A stretch of 20,597 nt of DNA from Vitreoscilla sp. (GCA_018780145.1 JADMKA010000243.1:1-20597), one strand, 5' to 3'; numbered from the stretch's first letter, positions 3,974 through 16,700 are shown. Made by a program: numbers and translations. Notes: a model not told the origin generated them from the sequence alone.

Positions 3974-4771
3974 ATGTCGGCAGTTATCGGATCAGGTCGG
4001 TCGCAGACGCCAAGTCAGGCGGCGGTAACCGAGCAGAAGATGTTCAAGTTCGGGCCGGTGGCCATCGTTTGGGGGCTGATGGCAGCCATTTACCTGGGGC
4101 TTCGGGTCTTCCAGCAGGAATTCGGGTTCAGCGTGGGTTTGGACTCTACAACGCCCGAATTCGAGTCGCACTGGATGCGTCTGTTTCAGATCGAGGTGCC
4201 ACTGATTTTCGGCACAGGCTTTGCCGTCTGGCTCTACCTCTGGTTCACGCGCGACAAAAACATGGACAGTCTGCAGCCGAAGGAGGAACTGCGGCGATAC
4301 TTTTCGCTGGTGGCTTGGTTTCTTCTGTACACGTTCTCCTTCCTCTGGATCGCCAGCTTCTTCGGCGAGGGAGACGCAGTCTGGCACCAGACCGTCGTTC
4401 GCGACACGTCGTTCACGCCGAGCCACATCGTGGTGTTTTACGCGTGCGTTCCGATGTACATCGTGTTCGGGGTTTCGAGCCTGCTCTACGCAACAACCCG
4501 GCTCCCGCGCTTCGCGAAAGGCTACTCGGTGCCCCTGATCATGGCCGTGCTCGGGCCGGCGCTGATCCTGCCGAACCTCGGATACAACGAGTGGGGGCAT
4601 GCGTTCTGGCTGACCGAGGAGATCTTCAGTCACCCGCTGCACTGGGGCTTCCCGATTCTCGGTTGGACCGGTTTCGCGCTCGGCGGTGTGCTATTGCAGG
4701 CGCTGACGCGGATGTACGAGTTGTTCCGTGAGATCGACGGCACTTCGGAGCCGGCGAAAGCGACAGCCTGA
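3974..4771 (+). CDS. pmoC: Copper membrane monooxygenase subunit C (PmoC/AmoC/HmoC family)
   Basis: 'GEGDAVWHQTVVRDTSFTPSHIVVFY' matches the PmoC core as I recall it ('EQDGTWHQTIVRDTDFTPSHI'). 'NEWGHAFWLTEEIFSHPLHWGF' matches the second conserved Asn/His/His region. The protein is multi-pass and hydrophobic. An AAGGAAAGGA ribosome-binding site lies upstream. Confidence 0.9.
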   Translation: MSAVIGSGRSQTPSQAAVTEQKMFKFGPVAIVWGLMAAIYLGLRVFQQEFGFSVGLDSTTPEFESHWMRLFQIEVPLIFGTGFAVWLYLWFTRDKNMDSLQPKEELRRYFSLVAWFLLYTFSFLWIASFFGEGDAVWHQTVVRDTSFTPSHIVVFYACVPMYIVFGVSSLLYATTRLPRFAKGYSVPLIMAVLGPALILPNLGYNEWGHAFWLTEEIFSHPLHWGFPILGWTGFALGGVLLQALTRMYELFREIDGTSEPAKATA

Positions 4772-4789
4772 GCAAACCCGTTTCGAAAA

Positions 4790-4817
4790 GCGGAGCGGGC
4801 GTGGCGGAGCGGGCGTC
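4790..4817 (+). repeat. Tandem 14-nt direct repeat (GCGGAGCGGGCGTG / GCGGAGCGGGCGTC) in the pmoC-pmoA intergenic region
   Basis: The repeat was read directly, with 13 of 14 positions identical. The second copy (GAGCGGG, 4808-4814) can pair with CCCGCTC (4828-4834) as a 7-bp stem. Confidence 0.7.
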
Positions 4818-4870
4818 CAACTGCGACCCCGCTCAGCCAAAGAAGAGCTAAACGATAGAAGGAGTCCCGT

Positions 4871-5683
4871 ATGGGTACAAACGATAGGGCGGTGCTCGAC
4901 TTGTCGGGCTTGTCGCCACAAAGCGAAAGATGGTCCAGAACATTCGACCTGCTGATCGTGGTTATTGCTGCGTTTCTGGTCTGGGCTGTTTCGCACATCA
5001 ACTTCCTGCTCTTCGCGGGCGACTGGGACTTCTTCATCGACTGGAAAGACCGTCAATACTGGGTGCTGATCTACCCGATCAGCGTCATCGTCACGGCGGC
5101 CGCTTTCCAGGCCATCTTCTGGCATCTGTTCCGGTTGCCGATCGGGGCTACCGCCAGCATGCTGTTGCTGCTGCTGAGTGTCTGGATCGTTCGATACCAC
5201 GCTTGGGAAGGCTGGGCAGGATTCCCCTTGAGCCTGGTCGTGCCGGGAACATGCCTGATGGGAGCGCTGGCGCTGGACGCACTGCTGGTCATTACACGCA
5301 GCTGGGTGCTGACGGGGGCCTTCGGTGGGGTGCTGTTCGCGATGTTGTTCTACCCGAGCAATTGGCCTTATCTGGCGCCGTACTTCCTGCCGGTGGAACA
5401 CATGGGTTCGGTGGCGCCGCTGGCGGATCTGATCGGCTACACCTTCCCGCGCACGGCGACGCCCGAGTACATCCGGATCATCGAGCGCGGCAACTTGCGC
5501 ACCTTCGAGAATGCTGCCGTTTGGGTGTCGAGTTTCTTCGCCGGATTCATCTGCATCTTCATGTACTGGATATTCTGGCAAGTAGGGGTGCTCGCGTGCC
5601 GCACAACGTCGATCCCGGTCGGTCAGCGATTCAAGGCAATGTTCGCCGGCAATGACGTTGAGGCGAAGGGGGTTTCGCAATGA
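4871..5683 (+). CDS. pmoA: Copper membrane monooxygenase subunit A (PmoA/AmoA/HmoA family)
   Basis: 'GDWDFFIDWKDRQYW' and 'TATPEYIRIIERGNLRTF' match the PmoA/AmoA signatures as I recall them ('GDWDFWSDWKDRRLW', 'TGTPEYIRMVEKGTLRTF'). AAGGAG lies 7 nt upstream of the ATG. The stop overlaps the pmoB start (ATGA). Confidence 0.9.
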   Translation: MGTNDRAVLDLSGLSPQSERWSRTFDLLIVVIAAFLVWAVSHINFLLFAGDWDFFIDWKDRQYWVLIYPISVIVTAAAFQAIFWHLFRLPIGATASMLLLLLSVWIVRYHAWEGWAGFPLSLVVPGTCLMGALALDALLVITRSWVLTGAFGGVLFAMLFYPSNWPYLAPYFLPVEHMGSVAPLADLIGYTFPRTATPEYIRIIERGNLRTFENAAVWVSSFFAGFICIFMYWIFWQVGVLACRTTSIPVGQRFKAMFAGNDVEAKGVSQ

Positions 5684-6939
5684 GTGCCATCAAAGACATG
5701 GTGCTCCGAGCCTTGCTGTGGATTTGCGTGGCTGTCGGTTGCATTCCGGTTCCCGCCCTGGCCCACGGCGAGCGTTCAACAGAGCCCTACATCCGTACCC
5801 GAAGTCTGCACTGGTACGACGTGACCTGGTCCGCCGACAAGGTCAAGGTGAACGAAAGCGTCATCGTCGAAGGGAAGTTCCGGGTCTTCAGCGATTGGCC
5901 GGACGCGGTGTCCAAGCCGGACTTGGTCTTCTTGGCATCCGGAGCACCGTCGGCCATGTTGGTGCGCAACGAGAGCTACATCAACGAGTTGCCGGCACGC
6001 CAGTCGATCAAGAACCTGGAACTCGGGCGCGACTACTCGTTCAAGCTGGTCATGCGCGGTCGGGTTCCCGGCAAGTGGCATCTTCACCCGATGTTGAACA
6101 TATCGGGCGCGGGGCCGGTGATCGGGCCCGGCAGTTGGGTCGAAGTCGCCGGGAACGCGGCGGATTTCCGGGAGTCCGTGACGACCTTGCACGGAACGAA
6201 GATCGACGACCTCCAGAACTACGGCGTGGCGCGGGCGCAGGCTTGGCAGGCGGGCTACGCACTGATCGCGGTGGCCTGGTTGCTGTGGTGGCTGCGTCGG
6301 CCGCTGATCATTCCGCGGTGGCGCGCGCTCGAACGAGGTCGCGAAGATCTGCTCGTCACGACCAAGGACGACAAGGTTGCGGTGGGACTTCTGGTGCTGG
6401 TGCTCGCGGTGGTCATCGTCGGATTCACCCAGACGCAGAAGGATTACCCACAATTGGTGCCCTTGCAGGCAGGCGTTGGGTATACACCTCCCCTGCCCGA
6501 GCAACCAACGGCTGTCGCGATCAAGTTCAAACGTGCGGAGTACGACGTTCCCGGGAGAACAATGCGAGTGACTGCAGAGTTCACAAACAAGTCCGACAAG
6601 CCGCAGCGCATCGGGGAGTTCACGACGGCGGGGTTGCGTTTCGTGAACAAGAACCTGCCGGCCGCCGTCGCCGCCGTCGACCCGAAGTTCCCCAAGGAAC
6701 TCGTGCCGGCCAATGGACTGCGTGTCGACAAGGACGCGCCGCTGCAGCCGGGTGAAAAGCGCGTGGTGACAATCGACGCCTCCGACGCAGCGTGGGAAGT
6801 GGAGCGGCTGGTGAGTTTCCTGACCAACGTCGACGCGCGGACCGGCGGCCTGGTGTTTTTCTACGACGACAGCGGGAAGCGCTCGATTGGCGAGGTGTTC
6901 GGCCCAATCCTTCCGGTGTTCAAGGGTGTTCGCTTGTGA
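5680..6939 (+). CDS. pmoB: Copper membrane monooxygenase subunit B (PmoB/AmoB/HmoB family)
   Basis: The signal peptide ends 'PALA|HGERS', giving an N-terminal His on the mature protein. 'GKWHLHPMLNISGAGPVIGPG' matches the PmoB 'WHVHTMMNVQGGGPIIGPG' region. Two central TM helices separate two periplasmic domains. Confidence 0.9.
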   Translation: MSAIKDMVLRALLWICVAVGCIPVPALAHGERSTEPYIRTRSLHWYDVTWSADKVKVNESVIVEGKFRVFSDWPDAVSKPDLVFLASGAPSAMLVRNESYINELPARQSIKNLELGRDYSFKLVMRGRVPGKWHLHPMLNISGAGPVIGPGSWVEVAGNAADFRESVTTLHGTKIDDLQNYGVARAQAWQAGYALIAVAWLLWWLRRPLIIPRWRALERGREDLLVTTKDDKVAVGLLVLVLAVVIVGFTQTQKDYPQLVPLQAGVGYTPPLPEQPTAVAIKFKRAEYDVPGRTMRVTAEFTNKSDKPQRIGEFTTAGLRFVNKNLPAAVAAVDPKFPKELVPANGLRVDKDAPLQPGEKRVVTIDASDAAWEVERLVSFLTNVDARTGGLVFFYDDSGKRSIGEVFGPILPVFKGVRL

Positions 6940-12415: not shown

Positions 12416-12552
12416 CTTGGGAGAAAACTCATGCAGTTCGAAAGCAGTGTCGTTATAGGAGTCGGCTCGGAGGGCGCTTGCGCCCGTCCGCGTTGGGCGC
12501 TCGGCGGAATCGCACACGCGCAGATGGCAAGGTGCATCAATTGGAGCCACTC

Positions 12553-13305
12553 ATGATGTCGAGGCTGATTGCGTTCATCTACGGGGCCAGCTGTTATCTC
12601 TTCTTTCTTGCGGTATTTGTTTACCTGGTCGCCTTTGTCGCCGACATTCCGGTGTCTGGTCTGATACCCAAGACAGTGAGTCACGGTGCTTCGACAGGGG
12701 CAGGCGGTGCCATTGTCCTGAACACCTTGTTGATGCTGCTGTTCGGGCTTCAGCACAGCATCATGGCCCGCTCCGGTTTCAAGACGTTCATTCAACGTGC
12801 GGTTGCGCCACACATCGAGCGCAGCACCTATGTGCTGGTCTCCAGCCTCGCATTGGCCTTGCTGATGTGGCAGTGGCAACCCATCGACGGCATGGTCTGG
12901 CAGTTCGAGTCAACGTTTGCGAAGTACCTGCTCTGGGGGCTGTTCTTCTTTGGCTGGGCGCTGATCTTCGTGGCGACCTTTCTGACCGATCATTTCGATT
13001 TGTTTGGCCTGCGCCAGGTTTACCTGAACATGGTGGGAAAGAGCTACACGCACGTCGAATTCAAGACGGTGTTTCTCTACAAGATGATGCGCCACCCCAT
13101 GATGTCGGGCATGCTGATCGCGATGTGGGCGAACCCGGTGATGACGATGTCGCATCTGCTGCTCTCTGCGGGCTTGTCGATCTACGTCTTCATTGGCATT
13201 CATTTTGAGGAACGCGCCCTGCTGAGGCACCTGGGTGATAGCTATGCTCAGTGGCGCAGCAAAACGCCCATGGTCTTGCCGGGGTGGCCGCAACGGAAGG
13301 GGTGA
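12553..13305 (+). CDS. Integral-membrane SAM-dependent methyltransferase of the ICMT/PEMT superfamily, MddA (methanethiol S-methyltransferase)-like
   Basis: Only the last 250 aa of the 650-aa ORF-track frame look real. The start is ATG 12553, with GGAG 6 nt upstream. Motifs present are 'LQHSIMARSGFK', 'TDHFDLFGLRQ', 'MRHPMMSG' and 'HFEERALLRHLGDSYAQWRSKTPMVLP'. Confidence 0.8.
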   Translation: MMSRLIAFIYGASCYLFFLAVFVYLVAFVADIPVSGLIPKTVSHGASTGAGGAIVLNTLLMLLFGLQHSIMARSGFKTFIQRAVAPHIERSTYVLVSSLALALLMWQWQPIDGMVWQFESTFAKYLLWGLFFFGWALIFVATFLTDHFDLFGLRQVYLNMVGKSYTHVEFKTVFLYKMMRHPMMSGMLIAMWANPVMTMSHLLLSAGLSIYVFIGIHFEERALLRHLGDSYAQWRSKTPMVLPGWPQRKG

Positions 13306-13403: not shown

Positions 13404-13676
13404 ATGCCAAAATTCATTATCGAGCGCGAAATTCCAGGTGCGGGCAAGATGTCCGCAGAAGAGCTTCGCGGCGCCGCGCAGCACTCCAACAGCGTGATTC
13501 AGAAGCTTGGTCCCGATATTCGTTGGGACCACAGCTATGTGACGGGAGACAAGATATTCTGTGTCTACGAGGCCCCTAGCGAAGAGTTGATTCGCGCGCA
13601 TGCGAAAGAATCCGGGTTTCCGGCCAACACCATCACCCCTGTGGCCGCGATCATCAGTCCGGCTACTGCCGCCTGA
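13404..13676 (+). CDS. DUF4242 domain protein (small SCO4226-like putative metal-binding protein)
   Basis: 'MPKFIIEREIPGAGKMSAEEL...IRWDHSYVTGDKIFCVYEAPSEELIRAHAKESGFPAN' matches the DUF4242 consensus as I remember it. A GGAAGGAAA ribosome-binding site lies upstream. Confidence 0.75.
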   Translation: MPKFIIEREIPGAGKMSAEELRGAAQHSNSVIQKLGPDIRWDHSYVTGDKIFCVYEAPSEELIRAHAKESGFPANTITPVAAIISPATAA

Positions 13677-13757: not shown

Positions 13758-14267
13758 TTGAGTCATCGCGAACAGAACGCGCGCAGGATGCGCACGATCG
13801 CTGCAGGGCTGTGCCTGGCCTGCGCCACTGCGTGGGCTGGCGGAGCGGACCACGCCAAAGGACACGACGGCCATGCCGCGGAGAGCCATGCGCCAGCCGC
13901 CAAGCCGGCGCAGCCGAAGGAACTGCCGCCGCTGCGCATCCTCTCGCCGAAGCAGGGAGCGCGGATCGGCCGCACCCTCAGCGTCGAGTTCGAGACCAAG
14001 GCCGACTTGTCGAAGATGACGATGGGCGCCAAGGAGATCGGCGCGCACCTTCACGTCGATCTCGACGGCCTGTCGCTGATGCCGGCGCAGTCGGATCTGA
14101 AGCCCCTGGGTGCCAACCGGTACCGCTACACCTTCGACCTTCCGGCCGGTCCCGGAACGCGGGTGATCAAGGTCTACTGGTCCGACGCCGCGCACAAGAC
14201 GATCGAATCGACGGTTCAACAGGTCACGGTGACGGTTGTCGATGACGCGGCCGGGGGGAAGCGGTGA
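13758..14267 (+). CDS. Periplasmic His-rich protein, DUF4399-like (tentative); putative copper-binding or chaperone protein
   Basis: The start is TTG 13758, preceded by AGGAGGAG. It has a signal peptide '...AAGLCLACATAWA'. The mature N-terminus is His-rich ('GGADHAKGHDGHAAESH'). 'GAHLHVDLDG' and 'LPAGPGTRVIKVYWSDAAHK' resemble the DUF4399 'GHHHLLID / LPAG..H' pattern. The stop overlaps the copC start (GTGA). Confidence 0.6.
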   Translation: MSHREQNARRMRTIAAGLCLACATAWAGGADHAKGHDGHAAESHAPAAKPAQPKELPPLRILSPKQGARIGRTLSVEFETKADLSKMTMGAKEIGAHLHVDLDGLSLMPAQSDLKPLGANRYRYTFDLPAGPGTRVIKVYWSDAAHKTIESTVQQVTVTVVDDAAGGKR

Positions 14268-14665
14268 CCGGGGTTCATCTGCGGCGGCGCCGGCTGGTCA
14301 TGGGTCTGCTGGCGGGCGCAGGCGCGGTGGGCCTGCACGCGGTGGCGCGCGCGCATGCCGCGCTGGTGAAGTCCGAACCGGCGCGACGCGCTGTCCTGCG
14401 CAAGGCGCCCGGGCAGGTGCGCCTGTGGTTCAACGAACGGCTCGAGCCGGCGTACGCGACCATCGTGCTCAACCGGGGCGATACGCAACCCGTGGCGACC
14501 AACAAGGCGCGCTTGGACCCCGGCGATCCGAAGCTGCTCGTGCTCGACCTGCCGCCCCTCGAGCCCGGCGAGTACACCGTGCGCTACCGCGTGCTCTCGG
14601 TCGACGGGCACACGGTCGACTACGGCTACACCTTCAGCATCGCGCCGCCCGGGGGCACCAAGTAG
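14264..14665 (+). CDS. copC: Copper resistance/acquisition protein CopC (periplasmic Cu-binding, N-terminal His type)
   Basis: An Arg-rich signal 'HLRRRRLVMGLLAGAGA...ARA|HAALVKSEP' gives the classical CopC mature N-terminus. 'YTVRYRVLSVDGHTV' is the conserved CopC C-terminal motif. Confidence 0.85.
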   Translation: MTGVHLRRRRLVMGLLAGAGAVGLHAVARAHAALVKSEPARRAVLRKAPGQVRLWFNERLEPAYATIVLNRGDTQPVATNKARLDPGDPKLLVLDLPPLEPGEYTVRYRVLSVDGHTVDYGYTFSIAPPGGTK

Positions 14666-14669
14666 GGCG

Positions 14670-16700
14670 ATGCAGTGGCCGGACGTCTTGCGCTGGCTGC
14701 AGGTCGCGAGCGTGCTCTGCGTCATGGGCAGCAGCGCAGCGCTGCTGCTGGGCGGCAGCGGCGGCGGAGCGCATGGCGCACGCTGGCGGCGCATCGTCAT
14801 GGCCGCGATGCCCTGGTTTGCCGGCGCTTCGCTGTTGCTGATGTGCTGGCTGCTGGCTGCACAGGCGGTTTCCGTCACCGGCCGAACCGACGCCGCCTGG
14901 CAGTGGCAGCACTGGCGTGGCGTGCTCGAGCAGACGCGATTCGGCACGGTGTGGGCATGGCGTCAAGCGCTTGGCGTGGCGCTACTCATGGTGCTGCTGG
15001 GCAGGCGACCGCTGGCCGCGCGCGTCGGCAAGCGTGCCATCGCGGCCATCGCACTGGCGCTGGCGGCGGCAATCGCCGGCGCGGCAGCGTGGGCGGGGCA
15101 TGGGGCTGCGGTGGAGCCCAGCGGGCTGGCCACTGCCGCGATGGCGACGCACATGCTCGCGGCCGGGCTCTGGGGCGGTGGCCTGCCGGCCATGGCCCTG
15201 GGCCTGGCGCTGGCCGCGCGCCATCGCGACGGCGATCTGCGCGACTGGATCGCGCGCCTGCTGCGGCGTTTCTCGGTGCTGGCCGCGGCTTGCGTGGCGG
15301 TGCTTGTGCTTTCCGGGCTGGTCGCCGCCTACTTGTTCTCGGGCGCGCCGACCGAGTGGCCGGCGCGCGTGGACGAGTGGCGGCTCGGCCTCTTCACCGC
15401 GCTCGAGCGCTTCGTCGCACCGTTGCTCTCGACGCACTTCGGTGTCTTGCTGCTGGCCAAGATCGCATTGTTCGCGGCGGTGCTCGGCCTGGCCGCCCGC
15501 GTGCGCTGGCGCTGGATGCCGCGACTGGCGCAGGGCGATGAATCGTGGGTGGCTGCATCACGTTCGGTGAAGGCCGAAGCGGCCCTCGTGCTCGTCGTCC
15601 TGCTCTTGGCGGCGCAACTGGCCACCACCGTGCCTGCCGCACACGATGCCATGCGCTGGCCTTTGCCGTTTCGGCTGTCGATCGATGCCTCCTGGCTGCT
15701 GCCGGGCGTGCCGGTGTGGGTGTCCGCGGGTGCGTGTCTGATCGTGGCGGTCCCCATATGGGCCGCCGCTGGGCGGCGCGCGGCGGGGCTGGTCGCGGCG
15801 TTGGCGGGGGCGGGCATCGTCATGTGGGCACTGGCGGTACCCGCCTACCCTGACACCTATCGCCGAAGCACCGTGGCCTACGACGCCGTGTCGGTGGCGC
15901 GGGGCATGGGGCTGTACGGGCAGCAGTGCGTGGCCTGCCATGGCGCCGCCGGTCACGGCGACGGGCCGCTGGCCGCGACGATGCAACCTCGCCCGCCGGA
16001 CCTCGCCGAACCGCACACGGCCTTGCACACCGCAGGCGACATCTTTTCCTGGCTCACGCACGGCAAGCCGAACTCGCCGATGCCGGGATTCGCCGGGGTC
16101 ATGAACGAAGAGCAGCGATGGGACGTCATCAACTTCCTGCGCGCGTTCTCGGCCGGATACCAGGCGCGGCTGCTCACGTCCAGGGTCGTGCCGGGCCAGC
16201 CCTGGCTGGGGCTGCCCGACATCGACTTCGTCGGTGTCGACGATCGTCCGGGATCGTTGTCGGGTCTGCGCGGCCGCACCGTGCTGCTGGTGTTCTACAC
16301 GCTGCCGGCGTCGCAGCAGAGGCTTTCGCAACTGGCGCAGTGGCACGAGCGTCTGCGCGCCGCGGGGGCCGAACTGGTGGCCGTTCCCCTGCCGGCATCG
16401 CGTGGGCAGCCTCGGGCGCCGCTCCCTTACCGGCAGGCCGCCGACGGCGCCGAAGACGCGGCCGCTGCGTACCTGTTGTTCAGGCGAACCCTGTCCAACC
16501 CCGGACGAACGATCGCGGGCGAAGCCCCCGAGCACATGGAGTTCCTGCTCGACCGCTTCGGCTACGCGCGCGCACGCTGGATTCCCGAGCCAAACGCCGC
16601 AGCACCGGGCTGGGACGACGAGCGCCTGCTCGTGCAGCAGATCGAGCTGCTGCGGCGCGAACCGCGCCTGCGGCCGCCGCCGGACGACCATGTGCATTGA
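14670..16700 (+). CDS. copD: CopD-family inner-membrane copper transporter fused to a class I c-type cytochrome and a Cys-less thioredoxin-fold (redoxin-like) domain
   Basis: The N-terminal ~400 aa are polytopic and CopD-like, and the gene starts directly after copC (4-nt gap). The heme motif CVACH is at aa 420-424 (nt 15927-15941), with a distal 'NSPMPGF' Met. Residues ~505-645, 'RGRTVLLVFYTLPASQQRL...AELVAVPLP', look like an AhpC/TSA/redoxin fold with no CxxC. Confidence 0.85.
   Translation: MQWPDVLRWLQVASVLCVMGSSAALLLGGSGGGAHGARWRRIVMAAMPWFAGASLLLMCWLLAAQAVSVTGRTDAAWQWQHWRGVLEQTRFGTVWAWRQALGVALLMVLLGRRPLAARVGKRAIAAIALALAAAIAGAAAWAGHGAAVEPSGLATAAMATHMLAAGLWGGGLPAMALGLALAARHRDGDLRDWIARLLRRFSVLAAACVAVLVLSGLVAAYLFSGAPTEWPARVDEWRLGLFTALERFVAPLLSTHFGVLLLAKIALFAAVLGLAARVRWRWMPRLAQGDESWVAASRSVKAEAALVLVVLLLAAQLATTVPAAHDAMRWPLPFRLSIDASWLLPGVPVWVSAGACLIVAVPIWAAAGRRAAGLVAALAGAGIVMWALAVPAYPDTYRRSTVAYDAVSVARGMGLYGQQCVACHGAAGHGDGPLAATMQPRPPDLAEPHTALHTAGDIFSWLTHGKPNSPMPGFAGVMNEEQRWDVINFLRAFSAGYQARLLTSRVVPGQPWLGLPDIDFVGVDDRPGSLSGLRGRTVLLVFYTLPASQQRLSQLAQWHERLRAAGAELVAVPLPASRGQPRAPLPYRQAADGAEDAAAAYLLFRRTLSNPGRTIAGEAPEHMEFLLDRFGYARARWIPEPNAAAPGWDDERLLVQQIELLRREPRLRPPPDDHVH

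Follow-up and report, generated by a model that had tools for sequence, protein, structure and literature searches.

Haem c and cysteine-less thioredoxin-fold modules in the CopD protein of copper membrane monooxygenase gene clusters: a three-gene copper cassette from Vitreoscilla sp.

In the present study, we analyzed a three-gene cassette in a 20.6-kb stretch of DNA from Vitreoscilla sp. (GCA_018780145.1, JADMKA010000243.1:1-20597), the whole of which is referred to as the window and which represents one complete contig of a draft genome of 5.57 Mb in 280 contigs. The cassette encodes a small secreted protein (open reading frame 1, ORF1), a CopC protein (ORF2) and a 676-aa protein (ORF3, hereafter the fusion) in which a CopD membrane core is followed by a cytochrome c domain and a thioredoxin (Trx)-like domain. 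The 'CopD' proteins encoded in amo, pmo and alkane-type copper membrane monooxygenase (CuMMO) clusters are orthologous to the 676-aa protein, and the cassette, judged from homology and gene order, is a further member of the CuMMO-associated copCD system to which a lineage-specific extra protein has been added. A CopD with the haem and Trx-like extension is standard beside CuMMO genes in betaproteobacterial ammonia-oxidizing bacteria (beta-AOB), comammox Nitrospira and alkane-oxidizing Burkholderiales, and occurs in at least one CuMMO genome of another class.

In a word-indexed search, the fusion had at least 407 full-length relatives, all of which combined CopD with cytochrome c and many of which carried a precomputed AhpC-TSA match; some are labeled 'copper export protein/cytochrome c family protein/peroxiredoxin' by JGI, which indicates that automated annotation detects the domains. 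Counted as one genome per species, full-length relatives were present in at least 584 species genomes, and the best 80 of these aligned over query residues ~6-676. Identity to the window protein was 49-54% in Polaromonas, Rhodoferax, Methylibium, Hydrogenophaga, Extensimonas, Rubrivivax and Sterolibacterium, and 34-38% in Nitrosomonas communis, N. halophila and N. mobilis, Nitrosovibrio Nv4, Nitrosospira and many comammox Nitrospira. The relatives comprise both the CopD of amoCAB(ED)-copCD operons in Nitrosomonas, Nitrosospira/Nitrosovibrio and comammox Nitrospira and that of alkane-type CuMMO clusters in Polaromonas, Rhodoferax and Methylibium. Exactly one CxxCH motif was found in each of the 91 complete ORFs of the fetched loci, which belong to Pseudomonadota and Nitrospirota and from which the conservation counts below are taken. 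The initial annotation of the window had treated this combination of three modules as an oddity that arose locally, a view that the distribution does not sustain.

Regarding gene order, the fusion was immediately preceded by CopC in 85 of 88 loci and a PmoD/AmoD-like gene was present in 69 of 88; a CuMMO subunit gene fell inside the fetched flank in 42 of 88, with many of the other loci ending at a contig edge. Six of seven contexts examined for distant homologues were ordered AmoC-AMO-MonooxygenaseB-(a 160-200-aa PmoD-like or ORF1-like gene)-CopC-fusion. In an evenly drawn order-level sample of 401 genomes, which was searched with the family-specific C-terminal half as the query and with PF02461 for AmoA/PmoA, the full-length fusion was detected in 18 genomes and AmoA/PmoA in 10. 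All 10 AmoA-positive genomes carried the fusion, nine of them no more than 11 kb from amoA. The copper context and CuMMO link that had been proposed for the cassette are borne out. The remaining eight fusion-positive genomes gave no AmoA match, and four of these, which belong to the nitrifier-like family f20 and have the gene close to where a contig begins, are ambiguous, whereas the other four are clear. A phylum-wide sample contained an other-class CuMMO genome with a 650-aa long CopD (CVACH, a Trx-like domain and the ending LHSH) 4 kb from pmoA, and no fusion homologue was found in a same-class (Gammaproteobacteria) CuMMO genome that is 100% complete. These counts are strong evidence that CuMMO genomes of these lineages almost always carry the fusion, and that the association is one-directional and not exclusive.

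Extended pmo and amo operons are known to encode PmoD/AmoD, CopC, CopD and sometimes PCuAC, and are arranged as amoCAB-amoE/D-copC-copD in beta-AOB and comammox Nitrospira and as pmoCAB-pmoD-copC-copD-pCuAC in alphaproteobacterial methanotrophs (Fisher et al., 2018; PMC6189053). The amo-linked copCD has been handled in the nitrifier literature as an ordinary copper-uptake pair, and the papers searched and read, in which the gene is called simply copD, contain no mention of the haem/Trx-like extension of CuMMO-linked CopD; an earlier mention elsewhere is possible. The CopD proteins of these operons resemble the window fusion over residues 6-676, at the lower identity range given above, with the same three modules, a single CxxCH motif and a C-terminal H-x-H, and they are likewise preceded directly by CopC and accompanied by PmoD/AmoD-like and CuMMO genes. 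The window cassette differs from them in being located ~7 kb downstream of pmoCAB on the same strand, after aldehyde dehydrogenase and acetyl-CoA hydrolase genes, in having ORF1 in place of AmoD/E, and in belonging to a separate, ORF1-associated Burkholderiales-type clade of the fusion tree (Shimodaira-Hasegawa-like approximate likelihood ratio test, SH-aLRT, 99). Identities to the window were discordant between the two gene sets, amounting to 41% for PmoA and 54% for the fusion in Polaromonas (L009-L011) and to 68-70% for PmoA and 39-42% for the fusion in loci L008 and L020, which indicates that the two gene sets have recombined in evolution and that each was exchanged without the other.

Two of the four clear loci without a detected CuMMO deserve separate description. 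In a CuMMO-less genome of the same order (L090:7605-10166; G271:C9), the reading frame of CopC continues directly into that of the CopD-cytochrome-Trx protein, so that a single four-module ORF of ~853 aa begins with CopC, and this arrangement supports a direct CopC-CopD functional unit. In the other (L092:7430-8092; G193:C28), a PmoD-like gene stands directly upstream of CopC and the fusion, and AmoA/PmoA was not detected; the PmoD-CopC-CopD trio can thus persist without a CuMMO.

The initial annotation had described three tightly packed genes, a CopC with an N-terminal His, a CopD extended by extra transmembrane (TM) segments, a class I cytochrome c with the motif CVACH, and a redoxin-like fold in which YTLPASQQ replaces the usual CxxC; all of these elements, together with their coordinates, were recovered in the present analysis. 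ORF1 and CopC overlap in a GTGA stop/start junction, and CopC and the fusion are separated by 4 nt (TAG-GGCG-ATG). In the fusion, CopD (PF05425) scored 50.2 bits against a Pfam cut-off of 32.1, and the NCBIfam model copper_CopD (NF033808) matched residues 6-322 with E 1.3e-30 and a score of 107 against an equivalog cut-off of 195; the protein is therefore a member of the CopD family and not a canonical-CopD 'equivalog'. Hydropathy and the AlphaFold2 (AF2) model, which was based on a 74-sequence alignment and forms a single compact unit (mean predicted local distance difference test score, pLDDT, 92.9; predicted template-modeling score, pTM, 0.87), agree on 10 TM helices, eight in the core and two beyond it. 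Arg-rich loops, which by the positive-inside rule would be cytoplasmic, occur at residues 29-41, 111-122, 182-200, 277-301 and 367-373. They fit a predicted N-out/C-out topology, with TM9-10 returning the chain to the periplasm, and H144, H161, H325 and everything beyond residue ~390 would accordingly be periplasmic. H144 and H161 are present in 91/91 sequences and H325, just outside the core, in 88/91 (97%). Copper transport is a plausible predicted function of this core. Canonical CopD/PcoD/YebZ proteins share with the fusion the CopD membrane core and the pairing with a CopC whose Cu(II) site consists of His/Asp/His, but have eight TM helices and no haem. In Bacillus subtilis YcnJ (CopC-CopD-YtkA), an extracytoplasmic accessory domain also follows the permease (PMC8689200, PMC12362106); however, it is a YtkA domain and not a cytochrome c with a Trx fold.

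The haem motif CVACH occupies residues 420-424 (nt 15927-15941; TGCGTGGCCTGCCAT), and Cytochrom_C (PF00034) matched this part of the fusion with 45.6 bits against a cut-off of 21.3. The haem ligands C420, C423, H424 and M471, the last as the axial ligand, are each conserved in 91/91, and a segment of the same domain, EPHTALHTAGD, holds H449 (90/91) and H453 (91/91). The CxxCH motif, the distal Met and the predicted periplasmic location are those of a class I cytochrome c, to which the haem would be covalently attached. The closest solved relative is CytC552 of Thioalkalivibrio paradoxus (PDB 7o9u/9vr0; E 1.7e-15, 36% identity), to which Foldseek aligned the haem domain with a TM-score of 0.79 and a root-mean-square deviation of 1.4 A. 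CytC552 shares the His-containing segment that follows the haem motif and also partners a copper centre, since its exposed haem, with a midpoint potential (Em) of ~+160 mV, exchanges electrons with a tri-copper thiocyanate dehydrogenase (PMC9456337). In contrast to the haem domain of the fusion, it is a soluble, stand-alone protein that serves as the electron acceptor for thiocyanate dehydrogenase and is not fused to a transporter.

The third module was assigned by fold, as AhpC-TSA remained sub-threshold in Pfam (18.3 bits against 26). The family profile matched Bcp4, AhpE, ResA and TlpA in the PDB, with Bcp4 as the best match (E 6.8e-7, 144 of 179 profile positions), and Foldseek with the AF2 model returned Bcp4, ResA, CcmG, TlpA and AhpE at TM-scores of 0.6-0.77. 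The module thus has the Trx fold and strand order of the Bcp/AhpE and TlpA/ResA/CcmG proteins, but lacks their peroxidatic Cys or CxxC; YTLPASQQ aligns with the peroxidatic/CxxC active-site loop and forms a Cys-less loop that is 3 residues shorter, no conserved Cys was found anywhere in the domain among 74 sequences, and R551, H622 (89/91), E624 (90/91), D628 (91/91), R636 and W637 are conserved instead. Three known classes were considered and rejected, the redox Cys being absent family-wide: a peroxiredoxin (AhpC/TSA, Bcp), whose PxxxTxxC peroxidatic Cys is missing in 74/74; a thiol-disulfide oxidoreductase of the TlpA/ResA/CcmG type, whose CxxC is missing and whose fold alone is common; and a Sco/SenC chaperone (CxxxC and a distal His), which also lacks its Cys here and was not among the top 60 profile matches. 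H622 precedes a beta-strand and a DxxG turn, which we take to be the location of the Sco His. When the domain alone was searched exhaustively against 1.84 billion representative proteins, essentially all of the 386 matches were C-terminal in proteins of 640-700 aa. Shorter matches, of ~205 aa and 360-390 aa, could be taken for separate or split versions of the domain, but they start internally, at the Met of MPGF or in CopD TM8, and were discarded as truncated gene calls; in the searches made, the domain was found only in the CopD-cytochrome fusion.

The protein ends in a short tail, and 82 of the 91 complete orthologues terminate in H-x-H-COOH, mostly as PPP[DG][DE]HVH, with five others ending M-V-H; H674 is conserved in 82/91 (Met in five more) and H676 in 87/91. 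In a Nitrosomonas sub-clade (L051, L060, L083), the ending is PFPEDYVR and H-x-H has been lost, and a Nitrosomonadaceae sub-clade (L029, L031, L037, L042, L054) ends PPPDDMVH, with Met for the first His. These natural variants could inform on the role of H-x-H. Eight non-haem His residues distributed over all modules (H144, H161, H325, H449, H453, H622, H674 and H676) are 90-100% conserved, which suggests the pattern expected of a metal, presumably copper, relay beside the haem.

The partner protein ORF2 matched CopC (PF04234) with E 3.7e-22, and NF033814 gave 76.5 bits, under its equivalog cut-off. His31 would become the mature N-terminus after cleavage at an AxA site, and H31, Asp114 and His116 are invariant in an alignment with six orthologues, in which no Met-rich Cu(I) site was found in the window protein. 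By these residues, the window CopC is of the Cu(II)-only, periplasmic type, and its predicted site corresponds to the one, restricted to Cu(II), that has been reported in YobA and YcnJ-CopC (PMC8689200, PMC12362106). Its signal peptide (14264-14330) contains four Arg in succession (HLRRRRLVMGLL) and resembles a twin-arginine translocation (Tat) leader, a feature that is not common to all of the aligned orthologues.

ORF1 has a signal peptide, a His-rich disordered mature N-terminus (DHAKGHDGHAAESH) and an immunoglobulin (Ig)-like beta-sandwich core at residues 55-164, for which AF2 gave pLDDT values above 90 as against values below 50 in the tail. Its homologues form 65 clusters, all annotated as 'hypothetical' and none with a Pfam domain, and ORF1 itself has no Pfam or NCBIfam match. 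T88-M89, H97-L98-H99 and M108-P109 are invariant in the family alignment, H146 is conserved in at least 90%, and the N-terminal tail is His- or His/Met-rich; a fold search with the model returned generic Ig- or fibronectin type III (Fn3)-like domains only. The His-rich N-terminus had been pointed out in the initial annotation and stands, whereas the DUF4399-like core claimed for the same protein amounts to a remote resemblance at best. DUF4399 (PF14347) gave no match to ORF1 at E <= 10, was sub-threshold in 10 of 52 family members (best E 0.0038), and aligned in hhalign, as six real DUF4399 domains against the ORF1 family, at a probability of 58% (E 9.8e-5, 62 columns). Both are small secreted beta-sandwiches, and the HHH of DUF4399 aligns with HLH and its conserved His with H146. 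We know of no function for DUF4399. A CopC paralogue was rejected at an hhalign probability of 1.8%. A PmoD was rejected too, since CKLRxG...HFxGYQP and a C-terminal TM helix mark the PmoD-like proteins as a different family, one that is represented elsewhere in the window. ORF1-like genes always preceded CopC and were found only in the Burkholderiales-type clade and a small sister pair; as far as homology searches indicate, the family of ORF1 is small, has no name and does not extend beyond the Burkholderiales alkane clade and this pair.

Taking the modules and their conserved residues together, we propose that the cassette may be the copper supply of an alkane-type CuMMO island and hand copper over reductively, a reading to which we give an even chance. 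CopC would take up Cu(II) at its N-terminal His/Asp/His site, possibly assisted in the Burkholderiales-type lineage by ORF1, which offers a His-rich tail and a beta-sandwich bearing His and Met, and would dock onto the periplasmic domains of CopD. The haem would then reduce Cu(II) to Cu(I), freeing the copper from a very tight Cu(II) site, and would itself regain electrons from the cytochromes c of the periplasm, such as the cytochrome c partner of the pyrroloquinoline quinone (PQQ) alcohol dehydrogenase encoded downstream. Cu(I) may move via H449/H453, H622 and the H674/H676 tail to H144/H161/H325, enter the CopD channel and cross the membrane, and the transported copper would later metallate the monooxygenase. 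A conditioning of Cu(II) to Cu(I) by the haem is supported to some degree by three observations, namely the Cu(II)-only type of the CopC, the His set at the haem domain and the partnership of CytC552 with a copper enzyme. Expression of CopC and CopD alone leads to copper hypersensitivity (PMC8689200), which points to import, and the site of copper reduction during CopD transport has been stated as an open question (PMC12362106) that a haem reduction on CopD would answer. A more specific version, in which the long CopD serves CuMMO loading alone and works as a cupric reductase-permease driven by its haem, is tentative and in our estimation somewhat doubtful; it would have Cu(II) stripped by reduction from a CopC site of femtomolar affinity, and Cu(I) routed to the channel or the enzyme along a His relay that ends in the H-x-H on a Cys-less thioredoxin scaffold.

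Several observations weigh against copper supply to the CuMMO with reductive hand-over. Four genomes of the order-level sample clearly carry the fusion and CopC without a detectable CuMMO, and in these CopC still adjoins the fusion and the other neighbours are unrelated housekeeping genes. The seventh distant context, from Methylomirabilota, places the fusion among cusF, cusABC, merR and a copper P-type ATPase, and together with the CuMMO-less carriers it indicates that the role is not exclusive to CuMMO. In addition, a review reports of a copCD mutant of Methylosinus trichosporium OB3b that neither copper uptake nor the copper switch depended critically on these genes (PMC7558416, ref. 282 therein); the OB3b CopD may not be the long form, and OB3b also has methanobactin. 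Finally, the sequence does not fix which way electrons would flow.

Three other functions, namely periplasmic delivery, copper tolerance and electron donation, were ranked below this proposal. The cassette might act as a periplasmic metallochaperone or insertase, in which case copper from CopC and ORF1, its oxidation state set by the haem, would be handed directly to the CuMMO subunits or PmoD/AmoD with no cytoplasmic import, and the Trx-fold domain and H-x-H tail would dock and transfer it by analogy with TlpA/Sco-type folds in CuA assembly. We regard this as unlikely, although the tight operon linkage to CuMMO and PmoD-like genes speaks for it, as do the restriction of the Trx-like domain to the fusion, the presence among its structural relatives of TlpA, which has been solved with the copper chaperone ScoI and with CoxB, and the reportedly unimpaired bulk copper uptake of the OB3b mutant (PMC7558416). 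The CopD core nevertheless retains the conserved membrane His of its family, CopD homologues act as importers in other systems (PMC8689200, PMC12362106), and the fusion is kept in CuMMO-less genomes. That the haem oxidizes toxic periplasmic Cu(I) to Cu(II), or that the protein sequesters or exports copper, would make it a tolerance device that shields a periplasm with heavy copper traffic, and here the Methylomirabilota context just described counts in favour, along with the discovery of Cop/Pco systems as resistance determinants and the ability of CytC552 to take electrons from Cu(I) centres (PMC9456337). This is improbable when set against a partner CopC with a Cu(II) site only, the copper sensitivity conferred by CopCD alone (PMC8689200), and the fact that most loci adjoin a copper-requiring enzyme and accessory genes and not efflux genes.

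The electron donor of pMMO (particulate methane monooxygenase) and AMO (ammonia monooxygenase) is unresolved, and a tethered haem protein stands beside the CuMMO in many lineages, so that the membrane-anchored cytochrome c could be the redox partner of the CuMMO with CopD mainly as its anchor. However, the complete gammaproteobacterial CuMMO genome has no homologue, several carriers of the fusion have no CuMMO, metal handling is indicated by the conserved His residues and by a CopC partner that is invariant, and the OB3b mutant was reported without a major phenotype (PMC7558416); such a role is very improbable. An assembly or frameshift artefact joining separate CopD, cytochrome and redoxin genes can be practically dismissed because the uninterrupted architecture, at ~640-720 aa, recurs in hundreds of independent assemblies including complete chromosomes, and the AF2 model is one compact and confident unit.

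The route of copper to pMMO, AMO and their alkane-oxidizing relatives and the oxidation state that crosses CopD are unresolved, and these enzymes control the turnover of methane, ammonia and short alkanes. The haem domain and conserved His residues of CuMMO-linked CopD represent a testable handle on a step that reviews call unknown. The interest of the present results accordingly lies more in the family-wide and apparently undiscussed haem/Trx-like/H-x-H extension than in the window, for which the outcome is mainly annotational. If the haem-driven reductase-permease were true, every 'copD' in the operons of beta-AOB, comammox bacteria and alkane-type CuMMO would encode a redox enzyme that has so far gone unrecognized, and ORF1 would be a new lineage-specific copper chaperone.

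The features of the locus are compiled in Table 1.

Table 1. Coordinates of the cassette, the modules of the fusion and related genes; positions are those of the window except where a comparison locus is named.
Feature	Coordinates	Strand	Basis or remark
ORF1, secreted protein, 169 aa	13758..14267	+	TTG start, 6 nt past GGAGGAG Shine-Dalgarno
CopC (ORF2), 133 aa	14264..14665	+	GTG start
CopD-cytochrome-Trx fusion (ORF3), 676 aa	14670..16700	+	ATG start
CopD core, residues 1-322, TM1-8	14670..15635	+	PF05425; NF033808 over residues 6-322
Two extra TM helices, TM9-10, residues 343-390	15696..15839	+	Hydropathy; model helices 347-366, 370-388
Mono-haem class I cytochrome c domain (predicted), residues 400-497	15867..16160	+	PF00034, PF13442
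Cys-less thioredoxin-fold domain, Bcp/AhpE/ResA/TlpA type, residues 497-665	16158..16664	+	Profile and Foldseek
C-terminal tail PPPDDHVH-COOH (H674, H676)	16674..16697	+	82/91 H-x-H; putative metal-binding end
pmoCAB-type copper membrane monooxygenase operon	3974..6939	+	AmoC 5.4e-88, AMO 2.8e-73, Monooxygenase_B 1.1e-136
PmoD/AmoD-like gene, 193 aa	8799..9380	+	Motif CKLRVGKYYMHFVGYQP, C-terminal TM helix
Pfam-less gene 3' of fusion, locus L003	L003:10898-11764
Pfam-less gene 3' of fusion, locus L004	L004:11054-11914
Pfam-less gene 3' of fusion, locus L007	L007:10974-11828
Pfam-less gene 3' of fusion, locus L008	L008:11091-12023

The PmoD-like gene of the window is three genes past pmoB and apart from the ORF1-CopC-CopD cassette. 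Further genes on the same strand include those for a FadL-type porin and the aldehyde dehydrogenase and acetyl-CoA hydrolase already mentioned, and the cassette is followed, also on this strand, by genes for the PQQ alcohol dehydrogenase and a cytochrome c. A search for internal promoters and terminators gave no signal above shuffled controls. Immediately upstream of ORF1 is an SCO4226-like gene (13404-13676; PF14026, a nickel-responsive protein family, E 2e-25), which is preceded by a gene for an NnrU/PEMT-like membrane protein (12550-13305), and neither was present at the matching position in the related clusters inspected. Directly 3' of the fusion, several pmo-type clusters have a conserved Pfam-less gene of ~285-310 aa, and the slot of this gene is occupied in the window by the PQQ alcohol dehydrogenase.

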